Origin: Lytechinus pictus
Taxonomy: Eukaryota
Assembly (NCBI RefSeq): GCF_037042905.1
Contig: NC_087245.1
Span: forward strand, 16,742,001-16,806,000
Direction: 5' to 3'
DNA: 64,000 nt
Shown here: piece after piece, positions 5,552-53,100 of the stretch
Numbering within the stretch: position 1 is the first letter of the stretch
How the letters are laid out: each line of letters begins with the position of its first letter
Made by a program: the position numbers and the translations under genes
Notes under the pieces: model-generated
What the model was told of the DNA's origin: nothing
What the model saw: only the letters and a program-made list of their open reading frames with translations
Database searches by the model: none

Positions 5552-8500
5552 ATGGAAACTATTGGATACATATTGATTCTCTGGGCCTCAATGCAGATAC
5601 GCTGTGGTAAGTGTGTGTTTTTTTTTAAATCTATTTTATACCTATTGTTCAACGTTACGCGGTCTCGCTTTTTTAATTGCAAAGATTATATTAAAATTTA
5701 GCACCAGGCGACATCTAATATTCTTCATTGATTGAATGAATTATATTTGATTATGTGTGTATCAATTCAGGGTGCGCTCCAGAGGGGGGGGGGGGGCTTA
5801 CCCCCTGCCAAAAAACGGGGGAGAAGGAAAAGGGAGAGGAAAAGAAAAGAAAAGGGGACAGATAAAGAAGAGAGAGGGGAACAAAAGGAAGAGAGAGAGA
5901 GAGAGAAATGTGTGAATTAATTCAAGGCGCAGATCAGTAGGGGCCAAAAGCAATTTGCCCACCCCCCCCCCCTCATTAAAAATGGGGGAGAAGGGAAATA
6001 GAGATGTGAAAGAAAAGGAAGGGGAAAGAGAGAGAGCGAGATAGGGAAGGCGACGGGGGGAGAGGGAGGAAAAAAGGAGGGGGAAGAGGAAAAAAGAGAT
6101 GTCAAAGAAGAAAAAGGGATATGCAGTAGAGGAAAAACGTAAAGGATTAAACTGAGAGAAAAGAAAAATGGGATGGATGTAAGAAAGGAAGTTAAAAGAT
6201 AGATAAACAAGGGGAAATGGAGAGTGCCAAAAGGAAGAGAAAATATGCATGTAGAAAAACGTAACAAAAGAAGGGAGAGAGGAAAATAGAAAAAATAAAA
6301 AGGGGTCAATAAATGAAATACTTTAATCTCGCGCTTCGCATCCGCATAAATTTGATTCACGAGATATATACCATTTCTTTATTATAAAACATGTCTAAAA
6401 TGAACCGTTTTCAGGTTTGAATATCATTTTTTTTCTACCGCTCCGAGTTCACATTATTTTTTGCATCGAAAGACTCAAATGAAAATCAAGTAGTCAAGGA
6501 CCAACAACCTCATGAAAGTCAGGACCCAGTGCAGACTTGTCCCTTGCAGAAACTAATTTACACCAGCTTTACTGAATTTTTCCCCAGTTGGAATCTTTCC
6601 CAACATATTTCTTTTTTTCATTCAGATATCGTTGGCCTTATCCATATTTTTGTTTAAAATATTCATTTTCTCCTTCAGAAAATATAGAAATTATCTGTGA
6701 GCGTCGATCAGGAACAATTGATTGCCGGGAGGGCCGTATCAACATTCACAGCGCTATATACGGGCGAAATGACAGTACAACCTGCCCCCACAAACAGGTC
6801 TCGGACACAACATGTGGAGTAGATGTGGCGGGTGTGATAGATTCATCATGTAACGGCCAACAGCAATGCACATTGCAAGCCCTTAATAACCTAGCTGGAG
6901 ACCCGTGCGTTGGAACCTACAAGTTTTTAAATGTAACCTACACATGTCAAGGTAACTTTACACATTATGGAAGCTTAAGTGCCACCAAGATGTTCAGATA
7001 TTCATCTTGCTATGGATACATCCCTTAGAAAGAAAAAAATGACCAGATGACGAGATCTCGTATCTCGTCATGTCTACATCCTTTTAGAGAGAATTATGAT
7101 CAGATGGCAAGATCTCAGATCTCGTCATGTCTACATCCTGTGGGAGAGATGATCAAATGGCAAGATCTCAGATCTCATGTCTAGATCCTGTGGGAGACAT
7201 GATCAGATGGCAAGATCTCAGATCTCGTCATGTCTACATCCTGTGGGAGACATGATTAGATGGCAAGATCTCAGATCTCGTCATGTCTACATCCTGTGGG
7301 AGACATGATCAGATGGCAAGATCTCAGATCTCGTCATGTCTACATCCTGTGGGAGACATGATCAGATGGCAAGATCTCAGATCTCGTCATGTCTACATCC
7401 TGTGGGAGACATGATCAGATGGCAAGATCTCAGATCTCGTCATGTCTACATCCTGTGGGAGACATGATCAGATGGCAAGATCTCAGATCTCGTCATGTCT
7501 ACATCCTGTGGGAGAGATGATCAGATGGCAAGATCTCAGATCTCGTCATGTCTACATCCTGTGGGAGACATGATCAGATGGCAAGATCTCAAATCTCGTC
7601 ATGTCTACATCCTGTGGGAGACATGATCAGATGGCAAGATTTCAGATCTCGTCATGTCTACATCCTGTGGGAGACATGATCAGATGGCAAGATCTCAGAT
7701 CTCGTCATGTCTACATCCTGTGGGAGACATGATCAGATGGCAAGATCTCAAATCTCGTCATGTCTACATCCTGTGGGAGACATGATCAGATGGCAAGATC
7801 TCAGATCTCGTCATGTCTACATCCTGTGGGAGACATGATCAGATGGCAAGATCTCAGATCTTGTCATGTCTACATCCTGTGGGAGACATGATCAGATGGC
7901 AAGATCTCAGATCTCGTCATGTCTACATCCTGTGGGAGACATGATCAGATGGCAAGATCTCAGATCTCGTCATGTCTACATCCTGTGGGAGACATGATCA
8001 GATGGCAAGATCTCAGATCTCGTCATGTCTACATCCTGTGGGAGACATGATCAGATGGCAAGATCTCAGATCTCGTCATGTCTACATCCTGTGGGAGACA
8101 TGATCAGATGGCAAGATCTCAGATCTCGTCATGTCTACATCCTGTGGGAGACATGATCAGATGGCAAGATCTCAGATCTCGTCATGTCTACATCCTGTGG
8201 GAGAGATGATCAAATGACAAAATCTTGGATCCATGATCATGATCATCTGATCATCTCTTCTACTGACATGACAAGATACGAAATCATGTCAGATCATCTC
8301 TCTCATGGGATATAGACATGACGAGATCCAGGATCTTGTCATCTGATCATCTCTCAAAAAGGATGTAGACATGGCGAGATCCAAGATCATGTAATTTGAA
8401 CATCTCTCCCACAGAATGTAGACATGACGAGATCGAAGATCTTGTTATATGATCATCTCTCCCACAGGATGTAGATATGACGAGATCCAAGATCTTGTCA

Positions 8501-23500: not shown

Positions 23501-26500
23501 TAGAGAACGGAATGTTTCAGGCTTCAGTCATTCTTCCAAGTCTCGTCCACTTTGACTCTAAAGTAAGGTAAGAAAGAGCTTCATTGTCATGATTGTGGAG
23601 AGTCATCATATCGAACAACGCTGTACAGTGCCGAAACGAGGACAACCTGTTGAGGACGTGATTTTTTATTAGTACGGTGTATCACTTTTAAAATTTGCGA
23701 ACGAATGAAGCAAACCGGTCCCCCCCCCCGAAAAAAACACTATAACTTGAGTGTTTATACGTTAATTAATGCCTTAATTTGAAAGAGGTCGCGTTTATGG
23801 ACCTGATTTGGTAATAATAGCTTAAGTTTACGCAACTTTACATTACGATTTTTTATCACGAGTTTTGAACACAATACTATGGGTTTTGTTTAACTTTATT
23901 TTGTATAATATAGTTCTTCCGGCAAGGACAGTTTCAGGGTAACATTTGTAGCTTACCAGAAAACATCTCTCTTCGTATCACTCACACTCAAGACCCTGAA
24001 TTCAAGAGAGACATCGTTTCGTCGGAGGCCTCTTACACCGATCATTGCCGCCACCGTTCACGGCATGGATGACGAAATCGATGATAACGACAAATATGTT
24101 ACTTCAACGTTTGATGTCGGCATGGTATGATTAATTTTCCCCACATTTCGCTCCCTTTATATAACTTTGGACTTTATTCCACGCACAGGATCTCTAAATT
24201 TAAAATGAATGCCCCCAACGTACTTTAACGATTCACGCCTTATGAAATTGAAACTTTGGGCAACTCGATTTCCATTTATATGGGGGAAAATAATTCTCTT
24301 TTTTTCTTAAATGTATACAAATATACATTGGTGAAATTTGAACCATTAACGTAGCAATCCAACTTCAAATTTTGTAACGATGGATTACCATAGGGGAGAT
24401 GGTGCGCATATCTCGAGATCAAATGAGGGGCCCTATAAGAAATATCTAAGACAAAAATACATTTATGAAAACTTGATTTACCGATTTATTATTATTTTTT
24501 TTTCCTTCTTGGTATCAGCACGGGAAGAGGTGTTCCGTACGTGTTGGTCTATCACAAACCTCCATGTTTTAGCGTCTGTAGACAACATCAGTCTTTACTT
24601 ATAACTGTCTCTTACACTACCTCTCCCTCAACAGGAGCCTAATATGATAAAGAATGTAGAATGCGTGTATTGGGACGTTAATGGTAACCAGAGGCGAGGT
24701 GACTGGTCTTCAAGGGGGTGCAGACGAGTGCCCGGTTCCTCCAAGACAAGACCGGTCTGCAGGTGTCGAAGATTGGCAAACTTCGCCGTTCTCTTGGTAG
24801 GATCATTAATATTAATATATCAAATCATGAAAAGCATTGGCAATGGAACCTATATCGAAATGGGGTTGGTGGTGACAATGGGCCAGGGTGATGGGCTGGG
24901 GCAAGAATAAAGTGGCATACTAGAAGAAGGCTAACTTCGTATAGATGATATTGACAAACCATGGTTCGAGTCTACGTCGCACCTTTCAAATATTTTTTTT
25001 TAACTTTTAAATACATTTTGTATTCCACATGTTTTAGATTAGAATGACCTTTGTGACATTTGACATAGAAACTGCGACGGAAAACAACAAAAGGACAAAT
25101 GTATATCTATACAATACACACCATTGCCGGAAACCCACACACGCACACACCCATACACACATGCATAAGAAAGCTCGATATCAGAGTGGTAAGGAAACAG
25201 CGAATATATAATTTTTTTCTATCTATAATTTTTCACATTTATATCTTTACCAGGACATATACGATAAAGACTTTCTACCATTAGAGTTTCAATATTTCGC
25301 TCAGGTATTGACCTATGTTGGTTGTGGACTATCAACATGCGGTCTCATTCTCACCATCATCGCTTATTCTTCCTCGTAAGTAATTAATTTGTAATCCATA
25401 CCTTTTCATTCTATTTTTCTATATCCTTTAATTTCCTTGTTTTCTCCTTCTCCTCTCCTTATCCCCTCAATTCATTTTCCGCTAAATCCGCCATGTCTTG
25501 TTCTTATTATCCCTTTTTCTTGTTCTTGTTCTTCTTGTTCCATCCCCCTTTTTATTCCTCCCTCTCTCCTCCTCCTTCCCTGCTTTCTACACCTCTTCCC
25601 CTCGAATAAATTTCATAATGATTAATTCATTCTTCACTCTTTCATCTCCAATTCCTAGCTACCTCCTCATTTTTTTCCTTCTTCATTTTCCAACCCTGCT
25701 CTCACAATAAAGCGATCTACTAGAGGCCAGTGCGGCATAAAATCTTCATAATGTGTTTTATCTCGTTATACATAACATTCGTAACACGAAAATCAAATTC
25801 CTAAATTTCAAAGTAGTCATACAATCTGTTGTCATGGTTGTTGTATTCACATAATGGGCATGTTATTTATCCATCTTTTTCTTCATCCCCCTACACCCCT
25901 ATCCCCTCACCCTTGTAGAAAACTTCGCAACAAGCAACCCAATCAGATTCTCCTCTGTCTCAGCCTATCTCTCCTCGGTCTCTACATCACCTTCATGTTG
26001 GTGATTGGTCTCGGTCCTGTGATGTCCCCCATCCCATGCGGTATCCTAGCAGCTGTTCTTCACTTCTTCGCTTTATCATCCCTTGCATGGATGGGCATCG
26101 AAGGGGTTAATGTCTACCTCCTCTTCGTTCGCATAATCAATTCTTATATTCCAAGGTTTATCCGGAAGGCATCTTTCTTTGGATGGGGTAAGTAGAGTCT
26201 CCTAGTCACACCAGTGAAACCGACTCCAAACCGATTGATGGCATTATTGGCATGTCATTGAAAAAAGTGTAATATTTTGATCGGTCTAGAGTTGTTGGTG
26301 TGACTGAAATATTAGATCCTTACCACAAACCAATATCAATTCCTCTCATTAATTATGAAAATCGTACTATGATCTCCATTTACCCACTGTGTGCCCAATA
26401 ATACCAAGGACCGTAAATAAAAAAAGATGCATTTTTTTCTTCTCTTTTTAAAAAGGTTCTATTTGGCAATCAATCAGAAATAGTTATGATTGATGAAAGG

Positions 26501-29433
26501 GGTATTTTGTGTAATTACAAATCTTTTCTTTTGTTAAGAGCTCGTTTCAAACGATATCCACAAGTTGTAGGCCTATATACCTTCCATATATTATCCTGAT
26601 ATTTATTCCCCAAACCAGTGCAACCATGAATATTCTTGTACCTGGCGATCATGAAAATGCATTTGCCATGATGTTGTCGTTTTTTGTTTCGCCTGCATAG
26701 CAGAGCGAGACGATATATAGGCGCCGCATTTCCGACGGCGGCGCACAGTGGGCCGGGGCGAAACAAAAGTGCGCCAAAAGTCATTTTGGGCAATTTCAGA
26801 TTTTTAATTTTTGTCATGCCCAGCTGAAAGACAACACTTTGAAGAATACTTCAGCAAAATATTTCATTCGGAAATTTGCATAAACGTTGTTAATTTCCTA
26901 CCTCAAATCGTAAAATGTGACATTTTGCGAAATGCCGCGTATATGACAACTTAGTTGAAAACCAAGCCATTTCACATGAGGTTTTTCATGTAGAAATCTG
27001 AAATAGCACCCACATTATCCTGATATATTCTTTTATCGTGTGGAAGGGTTCAAAGTAGATAATAGACACATTTCAGGAGGTTTATAGGATAATTATTCTT
27101 CGAAATAGGCTGATAATCCATGTTTTTTGCATTTATATTAGAAAAGTTTAGATTTCCGTGGATTTCCGTTTAAATTCTATCATCATCATTTTGCTAGATG
27201 TCTAAGCTTTAAGTCGATACCAAATTTAGCTGCCCGTTCTTGCCCGTTTTCATGTTAGAGCCGATTTTACTTGACACAACACCCCCAAAACCTGTTAAAA
27301 AACGGTTATTTTTTATACCGCGCAGTCATCGCAGCGCACCGTGTGGGGTGGATATTGCCGTTCATTTTTGCACGGCGATGGCAATTACCCTTCCATTCCA
27401 TGAAAATGACATGAATTCCGGGCATAATGCAAACAAAATAAAGGTTGATAACGCATATTAGGCCTACCAGCCCCTCTTCCAGAAATAAAAGTTACTTGTA
27501 GAATAATTTCAGCCAAAAACCCTCCTCATAGTAAAACATTCGTGGTGTTATACTCTGCGTTTTACCCAAGTCTACTCTGCTTGATAAAGCACGGTTAATA
27601 TTTTTCAGATTTTTTGTATTTTTTTAAATCTAATGACCATTTCGATGCCATGAAATTATTTTCAGGATCTCATACACACTTTTTAGGCATGTGAGAAGCA
27701 TTAACCAACATTCACTCTGGTCAATCTTAAAGTAACACATTACACAAAGTTTATATACTGCACATTGTTTAGCGTAATTTGTCTTTTCACAAATAGGTTT
27801 TAAGTAGCCAATCAAAATTTGGTATCAAACTGACGTCATATCGGCTTTAAATTATGTTCAGTCGATTCTACGCCCAAAATTACCCTTAATCATCATGTTA
27901 AAGTAAAAATATAACTCGGAATATAATTTTGGCGCAGTTTCAACTCATTCTGGCCCACTGTGCGGCGGCGCCAACATCAAATCTTAACCTAAGGTTAAGT
28001 TTTTTAAATGACATAACTTAGAAAGGCTTAGAAGGTATATGGACTTAGTTCATGAAACTTGGACATAAGGGTAATCAAGTATTTATCACTGAACATCCTG
28101 TGCGATTTTCATGTCACATGACCAAGGTCGAAGGTCATTAAAGGTCGATGAACTTTTTCCATGTTGTAGGTAATTGTTGAAATGCCATAATAACTTTGAA
28201 AGTTTATGGATATACTTAATGAAATGTGGACATAGGGGTAATCCAGTATCATTGCTCATCTTGCACAAGTCGTAGGTCACTTGATCAAGTTCAAATGTCA
28301 TTTAGGGTCAATGAACGTAGTAACATATTATATGATTTTTTTTTTGCAAATAATTATTTTATAGTCATTTTCAAAGTCAGCACTGCTGCTATATTGAATC
28401 GCGTAATGCAGGTAAGACTGCTAGAGACGCTCCACTTGTTTAAATTATAATGACACAAGTTTAATAATATCGTTTGTTATCTTGCCAGGTCTTCCAGCGG
28501 TCGTAGTATTGATTATTGGTTGCATATTTAGAGAGAATTATGCTCGAGGAGATATGTAAGTAAAGGTTTGAATTGATTATATTAAATGATAATGAAAGAG
28601 TGATAATTACAATAAAATGATGACGACTAGTTTGATGATGATAATAGAATTATAACAATAATAAATTATGTTGATGACCATGATGATGATAATAATTTTT
28701 AGATAAGGATGATGATGATTATGATTATCTGATATTGATAATTATTGTAGTGGTATGATCATGAGAACAATAATGATAAGAATAATATTTAGAATGATAT
28801 CAATAGATATATTTATTCTAATATAGGTCTACTGATATTGGTAATTTTATTTATGATTACAATCATCCTGATATATATTATATTATATTCCCATATAGGT
28901 GTTTAATAAAGCAATGGCCCAACATTACAGGTTTGCTCATCCCTGTCGGGCTCATCCTCCTCTTCAACGTCGTCATCTTCATACTCGTCATGAAACGCAT
29001 CAGCTCGACAACGACGGGCAAGATACAAGACAATACACCGACTCGTCATCGTGAGCGAATTCGACGATTACGGAATGCTTTCATCCTCTTGCTCCTCCTC
29101 GGCTTAACATGGGTGTTTGGTTTCCTTGTTAATATCAGAAATGAGGTGCTCATTGCTTTTTCTCAAACTGTTTTCGTCATCTTGAACGCCTTTCAAGGAT
29201 TTTTCATCTTCGTCATTTATTGCGTCAGGCTGCCACAAGCACGGATGCAACTTGCTACATGCTGCCGTTATATCTATTGTCCCTTTGATATAGTTAAGAC
29301 TTCAACCAGTGATCAAAATAAGAACGCTAAGGATTCCAAAGAAATGAGTCATCATGATCAATTAAAACCATTGCCACTTAAAAGGGGTAAAGAGTCGCAA
29401 GCCGAGTCGTTCGATACTGTCTCAACGCCGTAA
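5552..29433 (+). CDS. Adhesion GPCR (secretin-like 7TM) with signal peptide, SUEL galactose/rhamnose-binding lectin domain, sushi/CCP modules and GAIN/GPS; 17 coding exons, ~1031 aa
   Basis: Phase-consistent GT-AG exons: 5552-5606 (METIGYILILWASMQIRC, signal peptide), 6679-6951 (SUEL: AIYGR...GDPCVGTYKFL), 10158-10205, 12197-12391, 13647-13829, 19134(or 19167)-19343, 20097-20258 (CCP-like C..C..W..C), 21104-21177, 22244-22393, 22838-23026, 23377-23567, 23914-24124 (GAIN, FVAYQKTSLF), 24635-24796 (GPS CVYWD...WSSRGC...CRC), 25254-25375, 25919-26187 (LHFFALSSLAWMGIEG), 28489-28555, 28899-29433 (LLLGLTWVFG, NAFQGFFIFVIYC, stop). Joined length is 3096 nt and stays in frame. Confidence 0.88.
6679..6951 (+). 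CDS. Exon encoding the SUEL-type lectin domain of the adhesion GPCR
   Basis: ICE...IDC...AIYGRNDSTTC...C...CNGQQQC...GDPCVGTYKFLNVTYTC pattern. Phase-1 exon flanked by ttcag and gtaac. Confidence 0.9.
7040..8508. repeat. 53-bp minisatellite (~22 forward copies) followed by ~5 diverged inverted copies
   Basis: Unit gatcagatggcaagatctcagatctcgtcatgtctacatcctgtgggagacat over ~7040-8230. Reverse-complement units (gatcatctctcccacaggatgtagatatgacgagatcc) over ~8235-8508. Confidence 0.92.
9455..10050. mobile_element. Non-autonomous TTAA-target TIR element (Kolobok/piggyBac-type target), copy 1
   Basis: ttaa|aggacaagtccacccc ... gacttgacct|ttaa. Homologous along its length to 32862-33448. Confidence 0.8.
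10584..11270. mobile_element. Degenerate piggyBac-like MITE
   Basis: Left end ttaa-ccctaaaaggactggg. Right end cccagtcctttta with a decayed terminus followed by ttaa. Confidence 0.5.
14128..18920. mobile_element. Large (4.8 kb) foldback-type element with modular long inverted repeats, in a GPCR intron
   Basis: Ends tgttacacccacaaatgtaa and ttacatttgtgggtgcaaca. The outer domain is an array of cccacaaatgtaat repeats. The inner domain has dozens of gtcttt(t/c)tccagacc(c)ggtt motifs on the left and their reverse complements from ~17170 rightwards. No credible ORF. Confidence 0.85.
15885..16186. mobile_element. MITE nested in the foldback element (PIF/Harbinger-like, possible 3-bp TSD)
   Basis: TIRs ggcccgtattctgaagtcgggtttaactta and taagttaaacctgacttcagaatacggacc, with att on both flanks. 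Confidence 0.7.
21420..22141. repeat. Tandem duplication of ~350-390 bp including (TTC)n and (GAT)n/(ATC)n microsatellites
   Basis: The block ...attgacgtaaatccatgacgtcatactattcaagttggggg...gtgaagtaaca...aatcaaa occurs twice, ending ~21751 and ~22141. Confidence 0.85.
26686..28438 (+). mobile_element. HINE/DINE-1-like (Helentron-associated) interspersed element, interrupted by a CACAGTG-ended transposon
   Basis: Sits in a T-run. 5' gtttcgcctgcat and subterminal atgcaggtaagac form inverted repeats. Internal catgaccaaggtc subrepeats. A homologous uninterrupted copy starts at 50161. Family assignment is inferred from structure only. Confidence 0.6.
26744..27962. mobile_element. Non-autonomous Transib/RAG-like DNA transposon (1219 bp)
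   Basis: TIRs cacagtgggcc...ggcccactgtg and 5-bp TSD cggcg (26739-26743, 27963-27967). Removing the element plus one TSD restores exactly tccgacggcggcggcgccaa, seen at 50201-50220. Confidence 0.88.
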
Positions 29434-33905: not shown

Positions 33906-34794
33906 TATACATCAAACCTTCAACCTTGCTCGTGGGCCAAGAAAATGATTAAGATTTCATTTTAAATCAATTTGTTTACCCTTAGTCGAATTAGATTAGT
34001 AACATTACTTCTCTTCGCATCTAAACCTAGTTTCATGTATACTCTTCCACGATCTCTTGCTTGGTTTACTTGGTGAAGTCTGAACAAATTCACGGGAAGT
34101 AACAATAATGAAAATAAAAACTGATGCGGCATCTCGTCTATATAGCCCCCATATTTGGCTTTCTATAGATAAAACAGAATGAGACAACTTAGATATTCAG
34201 TTTAGAATAAACATGTATATATACGATCTTCACTCTCTTCGTGTCAATGGTCAGTCTCTCCATTACCGCACGCAGCCGAGGGGGCGGGGTGGGTAAGTGG
34301 TTCCAAAAGCCTCGAAATTTTGGAAACTCTTACTTTTTACTGAAAATGTTCACAAATTCACCAAGTGTGCACGAAATCCTTCAATTTCACTTAAGAAAAT
34401 GCAACAGCGCCCCAATGAAAGCGCGGTCGCAGTTAAGTTTCTTCGAAAATGTCTACTCATCTTGCGCCACCCGGGGCGCCACCCCCCCCCCCCCCACGGA
34501 ATTTACGTGGGGCGGTACGGCAAATGTCCAATTCTTCCACAGAACGATACTTGTCTCTCATTTTTATTACAGGACACCATACATACAAAATATAATAATA
34601 GTCTGCTAGTTTCGTTTATTTTGTGATTGCGCAATTCGCAACAAGATATACGAGCAAATTCAACTCCAACTCCAAGCAAAGATCGACACGATGAATGACC
34701 TGTAAACCGGATGTTTCTGTTGCAATTTGACGTTGCAATACAACAGCTAATTAACTGAAAGCTTAGGAGCTTTGCATGAGCACATCTTATCTTG

Positions 34795-37700
34795 ATGAAG
34801 TTGCTTCGAATTATACGCAACACTTTGGCTTTGATTGTCCCCAGAGGAAGACACGGTGCACTCGCGTCACTGCAGCCAGCGCCAGCGGGGAGGTCTCTTC
34901 TTGACAAGATGGGGAGGGCTTACGTGAGGTGCGTGGAAGGAGAAGAGCATATGAACATATCCTTTTCATACAGAAACAAACAGAGCAGTTTAAATCGCCC
35001 AATTAATGAAGCTTTAGAAAAATCTCTCACACGCATCCAGAGTACTCTAAAGAAACATTTGGATAAAGAAATGAAGAAAAGAAAGAAAATGAAACTGGAT
35101 GACTCGGCGTCTAGTGTTTTGATGAACGTGGATGAGTTGGATATATCTCTGGTGTCTAATAAAAATGATCCCATTGATGTTGATGTTTTGAATGAAAGTG
35201 CATGGAGAGATGGAGCAGTGCTCTCTGTTGGTGACATTCAGTACGAGGTATGCAGAAATTTTCCAACCATTCAACGACTTCATCTGCCATCGTTTGTATT
35301 AGTCGGTTGTCCTGTGTTTCCACGCATTACGTCAGAGTTTACCAAAGGAGAAGAGTGTAGTTATACTTGGTTTCGTCAAGTTAACAAACAACTGGGTGAT
35401 AAAGATATGAATGACGCTACAGATAATGGAGAGAATCCTAACTGGTTAGAGGTAGGACAGCATAAGACGTACACTCCAACTTCACTGGATGTTGGGTCAA
35501 AGTTGAAACTCTTATGCACTCCGAAGAATGGTGAGAAAGTTGGAGAAGAAAAAGAGTGTGTTACCATGAGAGCAGTCAAGTGCGGGCCGGAAATGTACCC
35601 ATTTCAGAAACGTCATGAGTTCACTAAGGATAGGACTTCACCAGATTGGTAATGATTCTATTTTTAAGATCCTTGCAATGTTTCTTTTCTCATGATTTGG
35701 AAGTACATGTTTTGATATAACTGCATATCCATGAAGGTTTGATTTTTCAGATGTGTAAGCTGTGTTTTTAATTTAAGATAGTTAACACACTTGCATCTAC
35801 TTATTTATTTGTTAAATAACTAAATGAAAAAATGAAGTAAATAAGTAATGAAGGGGATATTCTTGAAACTGCAACAAGTATGATAACTTAAAGGAACTGA
35901 GTTAATCTTTGGAAAAAATACTTTATACAAAACAAAAACATTGAGTTAATCCAAAGAAACTAGTTTTGTCTGTTGCCTACATGTACTTAAAAGTTGGATA
36001 TTTAGAAAGAAGTGTGGACCATATGGCATTATCACTTTGTCAGTGGTGTTAATACAGTATGGCAGTTTTTTAGTTTAAATACCATAATGATCTCAATGAT
36101 GCAAGACCCAAAATTGTAGGCAATTACAATATCCTCACGGAGGCGCTCAGTCGGTAGAGCGGGGGTTTCGGATTCCGGTGACCCGGGTTCGATTCCCAAG
36201 TGGTGCGCTAGTGCCCTTTGCCTTTGGTAAGGCAATTATCCTCATTATACCAGGTCCCTCCGAGAGGACCTTAAGCCGTTGGTCCCCTGGTTGCTTGCTC
36301 ACAGGCATTCGTGCTTTCTTAGCAGTCAGGTAAAACACCTCGGTACATAATAATAATAGACAAAAGATCTTGTAATTTTTACTCTGTCAACATCTCTTGA
36401 CCATTTTTATTGTTGAAATAAGATATTTCTTTAAAGGGTCAATAGTGAATGTCATGTCAAGGAGAATGAAGATTTCATATCAAATCTTTTAATTGCCTTG
36501 ACTCCCAATGACAAATTTACTCCATTCTTTCAGTATAGAATCTATGTGGTCAATGGTTGAAGTGTTGACTTTGATACATCAGGGATATCATATTGCATGA
36601 CTTTTCCTCTTTTTCTTTTGCTTGGCAGTCTACGGATCTTTTCTTACAACATTCTTGCTGACATGTATGCTGATTCAGACTTCTCACGTGACTACCTCTA
36701 CCCTTATTGCTCAACCATATCGCTTGATATTGACTATAGAGAACAGCTTATACTCAAGGAATTATCAGGTAAAATACTCTATAATTCTTTGATAAATGAC
36801 TCAAGGAATTATCAGGTAAAATACTCTATAATTCTTTGATAAATGTGATAGTCAGGAGGATACTGCTGTATCTTGCTTCATTGAACAATGCCTGTCTTAC
36901 ATGCATAAAAACACAGATTTAAAAGAAAATGTTTCCTTCACCCCCTCAAATAAAATATTCTGATATTCTAGGTTATGTGACATGCACCATGTATGTAATA
37001 TTCATCAATAATGACACTAAATCATCACATTCACAGTGAAAGATTGATGTTCCATTCTGTTTCAGGTTACAATGCAGACATTCTTTGTCTTCAGGAGTGT
37101 GGCAAGAAGTTATTTCAGTATAGCTTGGAGCCCGCCCTCAATGACCAGGGATATAAAGGCCTGCTTATCTGTAAGACAAGACAGACACCAGAAGGAGAGG
37201 CACTTTTCTACAAGGAAGATAGATTCAGGTGAGTAGGTCATAAGATAACGATAACGAGATAACGATAGGGTAACGATTGCATGTCTGACATACAGGTGTA
37301 GGAAAAACAATGCACCGTGCTTTCACCAAAACCATACCTCTTCTAATATCTATTTTTTTTCCAACAAATTAGATTTTATTTCTGTTTTCATTGTACTGTT
37401 TCATCCCCCTGAAAGTGGTGCCTCCCTTGCATGAAGAGTTGCATTTAAACATGAGTCAAAAAATCATTTCATTGGTTAAAAATCAAGTTAAAACACACAA
37501 ATTTTTTAGTTGCATTTGATTGCATGTTCTGAGACCTGAAATACAAATTTACAAGGTAATGAAGGACCTGCATGCCGTATTTCGTAGTGCCTTTAATTTT
37601 TAAAGCAACTGATGAATTCAAAGTAGAAGATGATGAATAGAAGTCCCGCTGAAACCCACAGTGAAAAGTGACTCTTTTTTTTTTCAAGGTATACATGTCA

Positions 37701-50100: not shown

Positions 50101-53100
50101 CCAAGTGGAGATAGATGCCTTGCCAATTTGATTTTGCAGTAAATTTTTTATTTTTTTATTGTCTCACCTGCAAAGCAGAGTGAGACTATAGGCGCCGCTT
50201 TCCGACGGCGGCGGCGCCAACACCAAATATTAATCAAAGGTTAAGTTTTTGAAATGACAGCATAACTTAGAAAATATATGGACCTAGTTGATTAAACTGG
50301 GACATAAGGTTAATCAAGTATTACTGAACATTCTGCCGGAGTTTCATGTCACATGACCAAGGTCAAAGGTCATTTAGGGTCAATGAACTTTGGCCGAGTT
50401 GGGGGTATCTGTTGAATTACCATCATAACTTTGAAAGTTTGTTGGTCTAGTTCATAAAACTTGAATATAACAGTTATCAATTATCACTGAACATTCTGTG
50501 CAAATTTCAGGTCACATGACCAAGGTCAAAGGCCAATGAACTTTGGCCATGTTGGGGGTATCTGTTGAATTACCATCATAACTTTGAAAGTTTATGGATC
50601 TGATCCATAAAAACTTGGACATGATAATAATCAAGTATCACTTAACATTCTGTGTGAGTTTTAGGTCACATGACTAAGGTCAAAGGTCATTTAAGGTCAA
50701 TGAACTTTGGCCATGTTGGGGGTATTTGTTGAATAACCATCATAACTCTGTAAGTGTATGGATCTAGTTTATAAAATTTTGACATAAGAGTAATCAGGTA
50801 TCACTGAACATTCCATGCGAGTTTCAGGTCACATGACCAAAGTCAAAGGTCATTTTGGAGGTAATTATTAGATTGCTGTAATAACTTTCAAAGGTTATAG
50901 ATAGGCCTATAGTTTATAACATGTGGATATAGGGATAATCAAGTATTACTGACAAGTCTTAGGTCGCATGCTTAAAAAAAGCTTAAGCTGCCGCTTCCAG
51001 TGCATTCATGACATTAATCGTGCCAGGTACCCTCATGAATCTCTCCTGGGTTGAGTGCAGCACAATGTGAGTAAATTTCTTGATGAAGGAATGCATGACA
51101 TTTATAGGATTGGAACTCATGCCCCTCTATTTGGAAGATGAGATAAAACTTAGGTAATACTGATATATATATATATATATATATATAGGCCTACATCCTA
51201 AGAAAGGGCGAAGTCTATGAATGGGTTCATTCTGTCATTATACACATATAGACGTAAAGACGAAGGTAGAGGGCGTTAAGGCGCATTATGAACATTGAAA
51301 GAAGACAACAAAATTTGCCTTAAGCACAGATGAAGAGAAATATATATTTACATTCTGCGTGTTGGACACAGATGAGATAAAATAGGCAAAGAGGTAATGC
51401 AATGTTATAGTTCCAACAAAGTTTATTTCGAAGTCCAAATTTTCGACTAAACCTCCCGTCTCCTTCAGGGATACAATGCTCAAGCAATGCTGTGAGCATT
51501 GCTCAAGCTCAAGCAATTGCTCTATACTCAAGCAATGCTGTGAGCTTTATTGTATCCCTGAAGAAGATGTGAGGTTTACGTCACAAATTTAGACTTGGAA
51601 ATAAACTTTGTTGGAACTATAACAATGCATTACCTCTTTGCCTCTTTTATATATATATATTTACATATAGAGAGAGAGAGAGAATCAGCATTCAGCATTT
51701 CCATAGAAGTGTGGACTATTCCTATCAAGTCAGGATTTAAACCCAAATTTACTACCTTATGGAAAATACATGTCCCACCTGATGTCTTCATGTGATTGAT
51801 TTCTCTTACCAGCTGGAGGAAGCAATGCTCCTGTGAGTTCTGTACCAGGAATACCAAGCAAAGAAGATTACATGAAGGTCTATTGCACCCGTATAGGTGT
51901 ACCTTACCCTATCCAGGACTGGCAGTTCTATTTGGCTTTGGCTTACTTCAGGGCAGCATCTATTTGTGAAGTGAGTTGAATTTGTTATTGTATAACTGTA
52001 CTAGGAAGCAAAGTACGGGCAACTAATCCATGCTTATGTAGTGCCCAGTAGTTACTTTATTACAAGTCCTGAAGCATCTGAAGGGTGCAGCATATTTACC
52101 TTGGCGTTAAGAACAGCTGTAACGTACCCTGATAATTTAATTGAATGAAAGTCTGCCTGATCCCCATGAAGCTCACATCATTTTACTTGCTTTTCTGTAT
52201 GATTTTGTATTCATATGTTATTGTAATTATTGTGTGTGCAGTATGATGGTGGAATAAAAATCATTCAAGACATTCCAAAAGTAATACCAAACCTGCGAAT
52301 ATCATTGTAGGGGTAAGCTAAGATAATTTTCACACTACAAAATGGTTTACTGGTATTGGACAGTGTAACCTTTATCATGATATCTGATGTACATATATGT
52401 TAAAAAATTAGTGAACTGCATTTGGCATTGACTTACTTGGTGGTCCATGTAATTTGTGTACCTTATTAAAGCAAACACAAGTAAGATTTAAGAATAATGT
52501 TTAATTTCTATGAAAAAGATGTTTTAACCTCTTTTTTTTTTTTTGGGGGGGGGCACCAAAGACAACCCTTTTTCTAATATTACTTTTTCAGAGATGCATA
52601 TTTTGTAACCAAATGCATTTCTCAATAAAGTAACATTGATTGATGGTATCCCATTTGGTACTGATGTCATGTTTAGTTAATCTTGATTTGCATTTGATAT
52701 CTCCTTGTAGGATCTATTCATACTTGATCTTGATCTTCACACACACACACACACTTTATTGAGAGATAGTCAACTTTACCAAACAGACAAACATTGATTC
52801 AACTATCTTTACCAATTGTGTGCGAGTGTGAATGCATTTATCATGAACTTTCACACACATACTAGGTGATTTGCCATTTTGCTCACTATCTTCATAGATG
52901 CAATCAATAATTGTACAATTGATAACAACTGTGCATGTGTGGTAAACAATGTTCATATAATTTTAGTTCATTGTTGATATTGATTTTATCTCTTTATGTT
53001 ACAGGGCCTTGACCTGAGGTCCCTTGAAAGACCTTGCTTTGTTTTGTTTGTGTAGTATGAACGCATCTGGCGTGATGATGATCTTTACTCTGAGTACATG

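Follow-up and report, generated by a model that had tools for sequence, protein, structure and literature searches.

In this study we analyzed a 64,000-nucleotide stretch of the genome of the sea urchin Lytechinus pictus (NCBI RefSeq assembly GCF_037042905.1, contig NC_087245.1, positions 16,742,001 to 16,806,000 of the forward strand), which is referred to as the window and numbered from its first letter. An element of 1219 bp lies in it between two pieces of an adhesion G-protein-coupled receptor (GPCR)-like gene, inserted into an older host repeat and flanked by two copies of a target-site duplication (TSD). This element is very probably a copy of a non-autonomous DNA transposon of the Transib superfamily, from a sister family of Transib-N1_SP of the purple sea urchin. 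The first-pass annotation of this DNA had the ends and the TSDs right, but its span, 26739-27967, includes both TSD copies, and the element proper covers 26744-27962 (Table 1). The left terminus (26744-26750) is CACAGTG, the exact heptamer of the V(D)J recombination signal sequence (RSS), and the right terminus (27956-27962) is its complement CACTGTG. These heptamers and every other string quoted in that annotation were found at the positions given there. No coding capacity was detected in the 1219-bp element, in which the longest stop-to-stop frame lying wholly inside encodes 82 aa without a Pfam match.

Table 1. Positions in the window of the element, the parts of its ends, and the host-repeat sequence around it and at the unoccupied site.
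Feature	Position	Strand	Remark
Whole non-autonomous element	26744..27962	+	1219 bp, without coding capacity
Left TSD copy CGGCG	26739..26743		String read in place and empty site
Right TSD copy CGGCG	27963..27967		String read in place and empty site
Left outer block CACAGTGGGCC (heptamer + GGCC)	26744..26754	+	Same on both ends, in all three families and in Transib-N1_SP
Left variable middle GGGGCGAAACA	26755..26765	+	Unlike the right end; varies among families
Left inner block AAAGTGCGCCAAAA, two A-tracts about one helical turn apart	26766..26779	+	Also in Transib-N1_SP
Left-end-only palindrome CCAAAA-GTCA-TTTTGG	26774..26789	+	Similar palindrome at the left ends of all three families
Right 36-bp terminal repeat	27927..27962	-	Inward: CACAGTGGGCC-AGAATGAGTTG-AAACTGCGCCAAAA
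Left part of the older host repeat (insertion in its CGG tract)	26680..26743		Flank alignment
Right part of the same older host repeat	27963..28254		Flank alignment
CGGCG at the unoccupied site of a paralogous host-repeat copy	50209..50213		Flank alignment

From the terminus inward, both ends of the element have an outer block (11 bp), a variable middle (11 bp) and an inner block (14 bp), the last lying at equal distance on the two sides. Read inward, the family-consensus ends have CACAGTGGGCC at positions 1-11, GGGGCGAAACA (left) or AGAATGAGTTG (right) at positions 12-22, and AAAGTGCGCCAAAA at positions 23-36; at the right end of the subfamily to which the window copy belongs, C replaces G at position 26. 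Two more families with the same terminal scaffold were found in the genome, a 1.17-kb sister (locus L052) that is 73% identical throughout to the 1219-bp family, and a 2.0-kb family (L051, L049) that has an interior unrelated to it, no detected coding capacity, and perfect 5-bp TSDs in its two copies. The left and right middles of these two families are AGGGCGTAACC / AGAATGAGGTC and AGGAGAGAGCA / AGAATGAACCC. Across the six consensus ends of the three families, positions 1-11 and 27-36 are identical, including CCAAAA at positions 31-36 on both ends, and the sole difference within the blocks is an A at position 26 of the left end of the 1.17-kb sister. Between families, 3/11 and 6/11 positions of the left middle differ, as do 2/11 and 4/11 of the right middle.

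Between the 1.2-kb and the 2.0-kb family, the subterminal 94 nt show homology within each type of end, with about 62% identity. Positions 37-130 of the left end match the left end and those of the right end match the right end, with scores that were each reached in 0 of 500 shuffles; comparison of left with right gave no match, as such scores were reached in 154 and 21 of 500 shuffles. The divergence of the middle is similar to this ~62% background of subterminal DNA, and the middle therefore behaves as an unconstrained spacer. According to these comparisons the two terminal blocks are constrained, with the middle drifting at about the background rate. The families share homology end by end while left is unlike right, and thus descend from related parents with distinct ends. 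The bipartite nature of the terminal repeat, pointed out in the first-pass annotation, agrees with the published Transib consensus (excerpt of PMC1131882).

The 5-bp TSD had been proposed from an empty copy of the host repeat, and this is corroborated by the flank alignments. An uninterrupted paralogue of the host repeat lies at about 50155-50489 of the window; the left flank of the element aligns to 50155-50213 and the right flank to 50209-50489, so that the two overlap by exactly 5 bp, CGGCG. A duplication of 2 bp or 8 bp, which would be conceivable given the CGG repeat, is incompatible with this empty site. For statistics of TSDs and ends, a total of 31 copies were excised from 30 loci, with L003 and L004 representing one insertion duplicated together with its flanks. 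The TSD is 5 bp long in all 31 copies, perfect in 26 and with a 4/5 match in the other five, and the target consensus is the GC-rich C-G-N-C-G (C in 31/31, G in 27/31, any base, C in 28/31, G in 30/31), in keeping with the preference of Transib elements for GC-rich targets in an AT-rich genome. No other TSD length was found among the 31, and therefore the Transib assignment stands. Eight further elements have a perfect 5-bp TSD in six cases, a 4/5 match in one and a 1/5 match in one.

Eight of the 31 copies adjoin the same host repeat at its CGG tract, and this tract is a hot spot of insertion. Copies of the host repeat are extremely numerous, the summed contig depth at 27933-28145 being 10-100x that across the element. 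At 50209-50946 the right part of the repeat occurs again in overlapping register, so that the repeat is partly tandem there. Contig joints that bypass the element have just 21-24 nt on a side, in repeat-dominated contigs of sequencing runs, and most likely derive from other, empty copies of the host repeat. Elements were also found back to back, about 8 bp apart: L009 (C2:39658990-39661445) consists of two tandem copies of the 1219-bp family, and at C2:29472461-29475685 a copy of the 2-kb family adjoins a 1.2-kb copy with ~8 bp between them. Such arrangements are consistent with repeated insertion at CG-rich spots.

At least 41 full-length copies of the 1219-bp element, with 90-99% identity, are present in the 812-Mb genome; the count is a lower bound, with 40 of 546 candidates scored. 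The pattern CACAGTGGGCC + 15 N + TGCGCCAA has 741 matches in the genome and the reversed control none, so the ends recur far beyond chance. Genome searches gave 242 left-type ends (up to one mismatch) and 338 ends with the right-type motif AGAATGA. Of the 31 left ends, 30 keep the heptamer CACAGTG intact, as do all 31 right ends, and the median distance of copies to the family consensus is 3.1%. A younger subfamily (L001-L004), set apart by 38 diagnostic sites, includes the window copy; the nearest relative of this copy, 0.9% away, occupies an independent site and also has CGGCG as TSD. Copies only 0.9% apart denote recent mobilization, and the element is well preserved and recently mobile.

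The two loci L003 (C5:38722985-38727206) and L004 (C6:16570305-16574526) carry the same insertion with its flanks on two chromosomes, at 98% identity over 3.1 kb. Their likeness extends at least 1.5 kb beyond the element, and a larger segment carrying the copy was therefore duplicated. Contigs at least 92% like the element also occur in sequencing runs (X10 and others) labelled as a second species, organism B, and on the strength of these matches the family is probably shared with a related species.

Transib ends are described as a heptamer followed by a variable spacer of ~23 bp and an A-rich nonamer-like box, with 5-bp TSDs at GC-rich sites, and the published terminus spans ~38 bp with a conserved A at about positions 34-35; the purple sea urchin is among the Transib hosts listed there by Kapitonov and Jurka in 2005 (excerpt of PMC1131882). 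In that species, Strongylocentrotus purpuratus, the ends of Transib-N1_SP read CACAGTGGGCC-AGGGAGGAACC-AAAGTGCGCCAAAA and form a perfect 36-bp inverted repeat (PMC1131882, Figure S4g), and its TSDs are CGGCG, CGACG and CGCCG (PMC1131882, supplement file 1 part 3). It has the 11-bp outer and 14-bp inner blocks of the L. pictus element unchanged and at the same spacing, CGNCG-type 5-bp TSDs, and a small, non-coding body, the printed copies being about 0.56-0.99 kb against 1.2 kb here. Identity to its 36-bp repeat is 32/36 for the left end, 27/36 for the right end and 28/36 for the family-consensus right end. Transib-N1_SP carries the middle AGGGAGGAACC on both ends, whereas the middles of the L. 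pictus element differ between the ends; its host is a different species, and the likeness lies in the ends and TSDs. A search of this genome with the Transib-N1_SP middle for a symmetric family of that type gave four matches, all of them variant left ends.

Other superfamilies with short TSDs were rejected, as a family with identical terminal blocks had been placed in Transib before. The CGNCG TSDs and these blocks uphold the earlier description of the element as a well-preserved, non-coding substrate of a Transib-superfamily transposase. Novelty of the family, in turn, is removed by Transib-N1_SP, a family with the same terminal blocks that has been described since 2005; the L. pictus family is a new or uncatalogued sister of it and may already be catalogued in Repbase or Dfam. 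No such terminus was found in the supplement of PMC9435367, and among the matches listed in a full-text literature search for the 11-mer CACAGTGGGCC, none was on transposons as judged by title.

The organization of the ends is compatible with the following scheme. A Transib transposase supplied in trans would bind the outer and inner blocks on both ends and might cut by the nick-hairpin route, which is the route of HzTransib and RAG. Integration would then proceed with a 5-bp stagger. The insertions themselves are seen to duplicate 5 bp at CGNCG sites, and many of these sites lie in the CGG tract of the abundant older host repeat.

Several observations weigh against the Transib assignment and the simple picture of the ends given above. 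An autonomous partner was not found by the Pfam RAG1 search, which cannot detect canonical Transib transposases. Left and right ends are not the same, and they differ systematically: among the pairs taken from the first 100 of the 741 places, 35 of 35 combine one left-type and one right-type end. In all three families the right middle starts with AGAATGA, and the palindrome CCAAAA-N4-TTTTGG stands at the left ends of all three and is absent beside the right ends. Finally, the string ACAAAAGTG, located 12 nt behind the heptamer, is intact in 29 of the 31 left ends. The sequence differences between left and right are explained by common descent and are unrelated to spacer length.

These differences might also mean that the ends are functionally non-equivalent through end-specific sequence, i.e. 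the left palindrome, the right AGAATGA and the 130-bp subterminal regions, and not through spacer length. The end-specific homology between families with unrelated interiors, the confinement of the palindrome to left ends and the uniformly heterotypic pairs all agree with such a role. However, all of them are explained by descent from one parent element with distinct ends, and the identity in AGAATGA, 7/11 of the middle, is at the background level of the subterminal DNA. Transib-N1_SP, moreover, works with identical 36-bp ends (PMC1131882). A functional difference between the ends is thus possible but doubtful, and we prefer ends that differ by inheritance in a non-autonomous Transib family.

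The transposase that moves the family was sought at the RAG1-like loci and in longer copies. The genome search with Pfam RAG1 gave 17 matches at E<=0.001, and 22 up to E = 10, in some ten places. All of them are of the RAG1L type or fragments of RAG1L, and not Transib, according to tblastn and the best solved relative. For the 592-aa RAG1L frame this relative is amphioxus RAG1L 6b40 (E 1.5e-149). HzTransib scores just 3.6e-5 against RAG1L, and therefore a blank for Transib transposase means little. Longer copies with the same termini had been suggested as possible carriers of Transib or RAG1L/RAG2L genes, and none was found among five end pairs lying 3.2-7.9 kb apart (L048, L049, L058, L059 and L060), which are ordinary copies with foreign DNA inserted. 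The insert in L048 matches a Tc1/mariner helix-turn-helix domain, that in L049 has a marginal, below-cutoff GIY-YIG match, and that in L058 has long open reading frames resembling by eye a retrotransposon without long terminal repeats (non-LTR).

L031 (G000:C182:14998-19656), L032 (C233) and L033 (C4:15673407-15678089) contain intact RAG1-like core frames, 592 and 621 aa long and with a CCHC zinc knuckle at the end; the C182 locus matches the C233 locus with 100% identity over 4659 bp. Decayed RAG1L copies with 34-90% protein identity lie in about eight other places. At G000:C9:18143020-18173215, at least seven C-terminal RAG1L fragments lie on one strand at a spacing of ~2.4-8 kb, several with stop codons, and this run looks like a tandemly amplified piece of a pseudogene. 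A heptamer-like end, CACAGTGGGGCC..., is located just upstream of these fragments (L042:798), and no transposase was found beside it. No family end, searched for as the 9-mer CACAGTGGG, occurs within 1.5 kb of the 17 RAG1-matching loci (L031-L047), where the one match, in L042, has a different repeat. Likewise, none was found within 10 kb of the intact C182 copy (24.6 kb scanned, up to two mismatches), and inspection around the RAG1-matching loci and the C182 copy for any CAC...GTG inverted pair gave nothing convincing.

The intact RAG1L frames and the many decayed copies raise the question whether the elements are mobilized in trans by the sea urchin's own RAG1-like and RAG2-like proteins instead of a Transib transposase. 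The nearest copies are recent enough that something has moved them, no Transib transposase was found by a search blind to canonical ones, and sea-urchin RAG1L can start V(D)J-type recombination together with RAG2 (excerpt of PMC4840297). If true, this would be the first evidence of RAGL-driven transposition in an echinoderm and would provide the 'guardian of the genome' idea with a natural substrate. Nevertheless, such mobilization is very unlikely. The absence of canonical Transib transposases means little for the reason given above, no RAG1L locus carries these ends over the distances scanned, and a family with these same terminal blocks was placed in Transib in 2005 (PMC1131882). Furthermore, Martin 2023 (excerpt of PMC10629977) reports Transib elements whose ends are intact from many echinoderm species, and states that no transposition-competent RAGL element is known in echinoderms.

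The structure of RAGL termini points in the same direction. PflRAGL-A of a hemichordate has the order heptamer, TR2, asymmetric spacer and nonamer, with a true spacer asymmetry of 10 bp, and RAGL-B ends share a TR2 of 9-10 bp next to the heptamer (Martin 2023, excerpt of PMC10629977). PflRAGL-A and BbeRAGL-B/ProtoRAG resemble the L. pictus element in the RSS-like heptamer and the 5-bp GC-rich TSD, but the latter has neither RAG1L/RAG2L genes inside nor an asymmetry in length. In place of a TR2 of 9-10 bp after the heptamer, just the four bases GGCC are shared by both ends here. Mobilization by a Transib transposase is the preferred explanation.

In the first-pass annotation the left end was taken as 12-RSS-like and the right end as 23-RSS-like, and by this account pairing in the family would follow a rule of the 12/23 type, which would make the family relevant to the origin of that rule. 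The strings quoted for it are present: the left end has ACAAAAGTG at 26763-26771 (spacer 12) and CCAAAAGTC at 26774-26782 (spacer 23), each with 6/9 matches to the nonamer ACAAAAACC, and the right end has CCAAAATTA at spacer 23 (5/9) and TTGAAACTG at spacer 12 (3/9). At spacer 12 the sequence in the three families is ACAAAAGTG, ACCAAAATG and GCAAAAGTG on the left (6, 6 and 5 of 9) and TTGAAAGTG, GTCAAAGTG and CCCAAAGTG on the right (3, 3 and 4 of 9). RSS12-like 5' ends with RSS23-like 3' ends have been claimed for Transib5 of Drosophila and for Transib2_AG and TransibN1-3_AG of Anopheles (excerpt of PMC1131882, Figure 4C), and the 12/23 argument for Transib was repeated by Yakovenko in 2021 (excerpt of PMC8355894). 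These insect families share the CAC heptamer, an A-rich second box and the 5-bp TSD with the L. pictus element, but the second box is claimed at unequal distances in them and lies at equal distances on both ends here.

However, the 12/23-like layout does not exceed chance expectation. A score of 6/9 or better to ACAAAAACC is reached by 1.9-2.1% of the 9-mers in this DNA, and the probability of such a match at spacer 12±1 on either end is about 0.11-0.12. The spacer-12 string ACAAAAGTG occupies positions 20-28 and is made up of three bases of the variable middle and AAAGTG, the first six bases of the inner block, which is common to both ends and in the same place on each. The spacer-23 string is the second A-tract of this block; both ends carry both tracts, and the first tract of the left end differs by extension with CA. 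The asymmetry hangs on three bases of a spacer that diverges at the background rate. The spacer-12 'nonamer' is thus nothing but the outer one of the two phased A-tracts of the inner block, to which three bases of the left-end spacer are added. Transib-N1_SP likewise has ACCAAAGTG at spacer 12, on both ends of its perfectly symmetric repeat (PMC1131882).

The left end carries the spacer-23 box as well and is therefore not a 12-type end, which contradicts the pairing proposed before. The gap between the 11-mer and the inner block is 15 nt in 741 ends, shorter in 6 and longer in 12. These 18 off-spacing ends are single-copy variants of known ends with indels of 1-10 nt; none of them, genome-wide, shows a consistent shift of the inner block by 10-11 nt, and no end in the genome has the block ~11 nt nearer. 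As to the conservation expected of a functional string, ACAAAAGTG is indeed kept in the 29 left ends mentioned, but because the copies are young and stem from one master; among copies ~3% from the consensus, this retention reflects youth and is uninformative on function. The conserved parts of the consensus ends are symmetric, and the 12/23 resemblance is therefore chance. In RSS terms the terminal geometry is 23/23-like, not 12/23, and a 12-RSS/23-RSS pair can be dismissed as hardly credible. The element resembles genuine V(D)J RSSs in that its heptamer, CACAGTG, matches the consensus exactly and each end has an A-rich box at a distance of ~23 nt, with 5-6 of 9 matches to ACAAAAACC, but its termini are transposon ends and not gene-segment signals, and they lack a 12-type partner.

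With this element a well-described group of transposons gains another sea-urchin family, and as such it matters little. The RSS likeness of Transib ends was published in 2005, and the 12/23 idea is not new either, having been put forward for other families. Within this family group the spacer-12 'nonamer' arises artefactually from the two phased A-tracts of a single conserved block, and similar flags on other copies can therefore be quickly dismissed. For genome annotators, the useful points are the strict CGNCG target, the hot spot in one host repeat, and the three families with common ends.

Frame pieces matching a seven-transmembrane (7TM) domain flank the element at 25785-26195 (positions 29-126 of the secretin-type profile) and 28822-29433 (positions 161-250), and a SUEL-lectin piece lies upstream of it. 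Together, the pieces at 6576-7025, 25785-26195 and 28822-29433, all on the + strand, resemble a latrophilin-like adhesion GPCR with SUEL lectin and secretin-type 7TM domains. Since the element is placed between the two 7TM pieces, it most likely sits in an intron of this predicted gene; nothing ties it to the function of the gene. Further downstream in the window, an exon-like region at about 37062-37229 resembles by eye the endonuclease/exonuclease/phosphatase fold, its 56-aa piece having no Pfam match, and the N-terminal domain of a 2',5'-phosphodiesterase 12-like protein is encoded at 34780-35649 (Pfam PF21171, E 3.5e-16).

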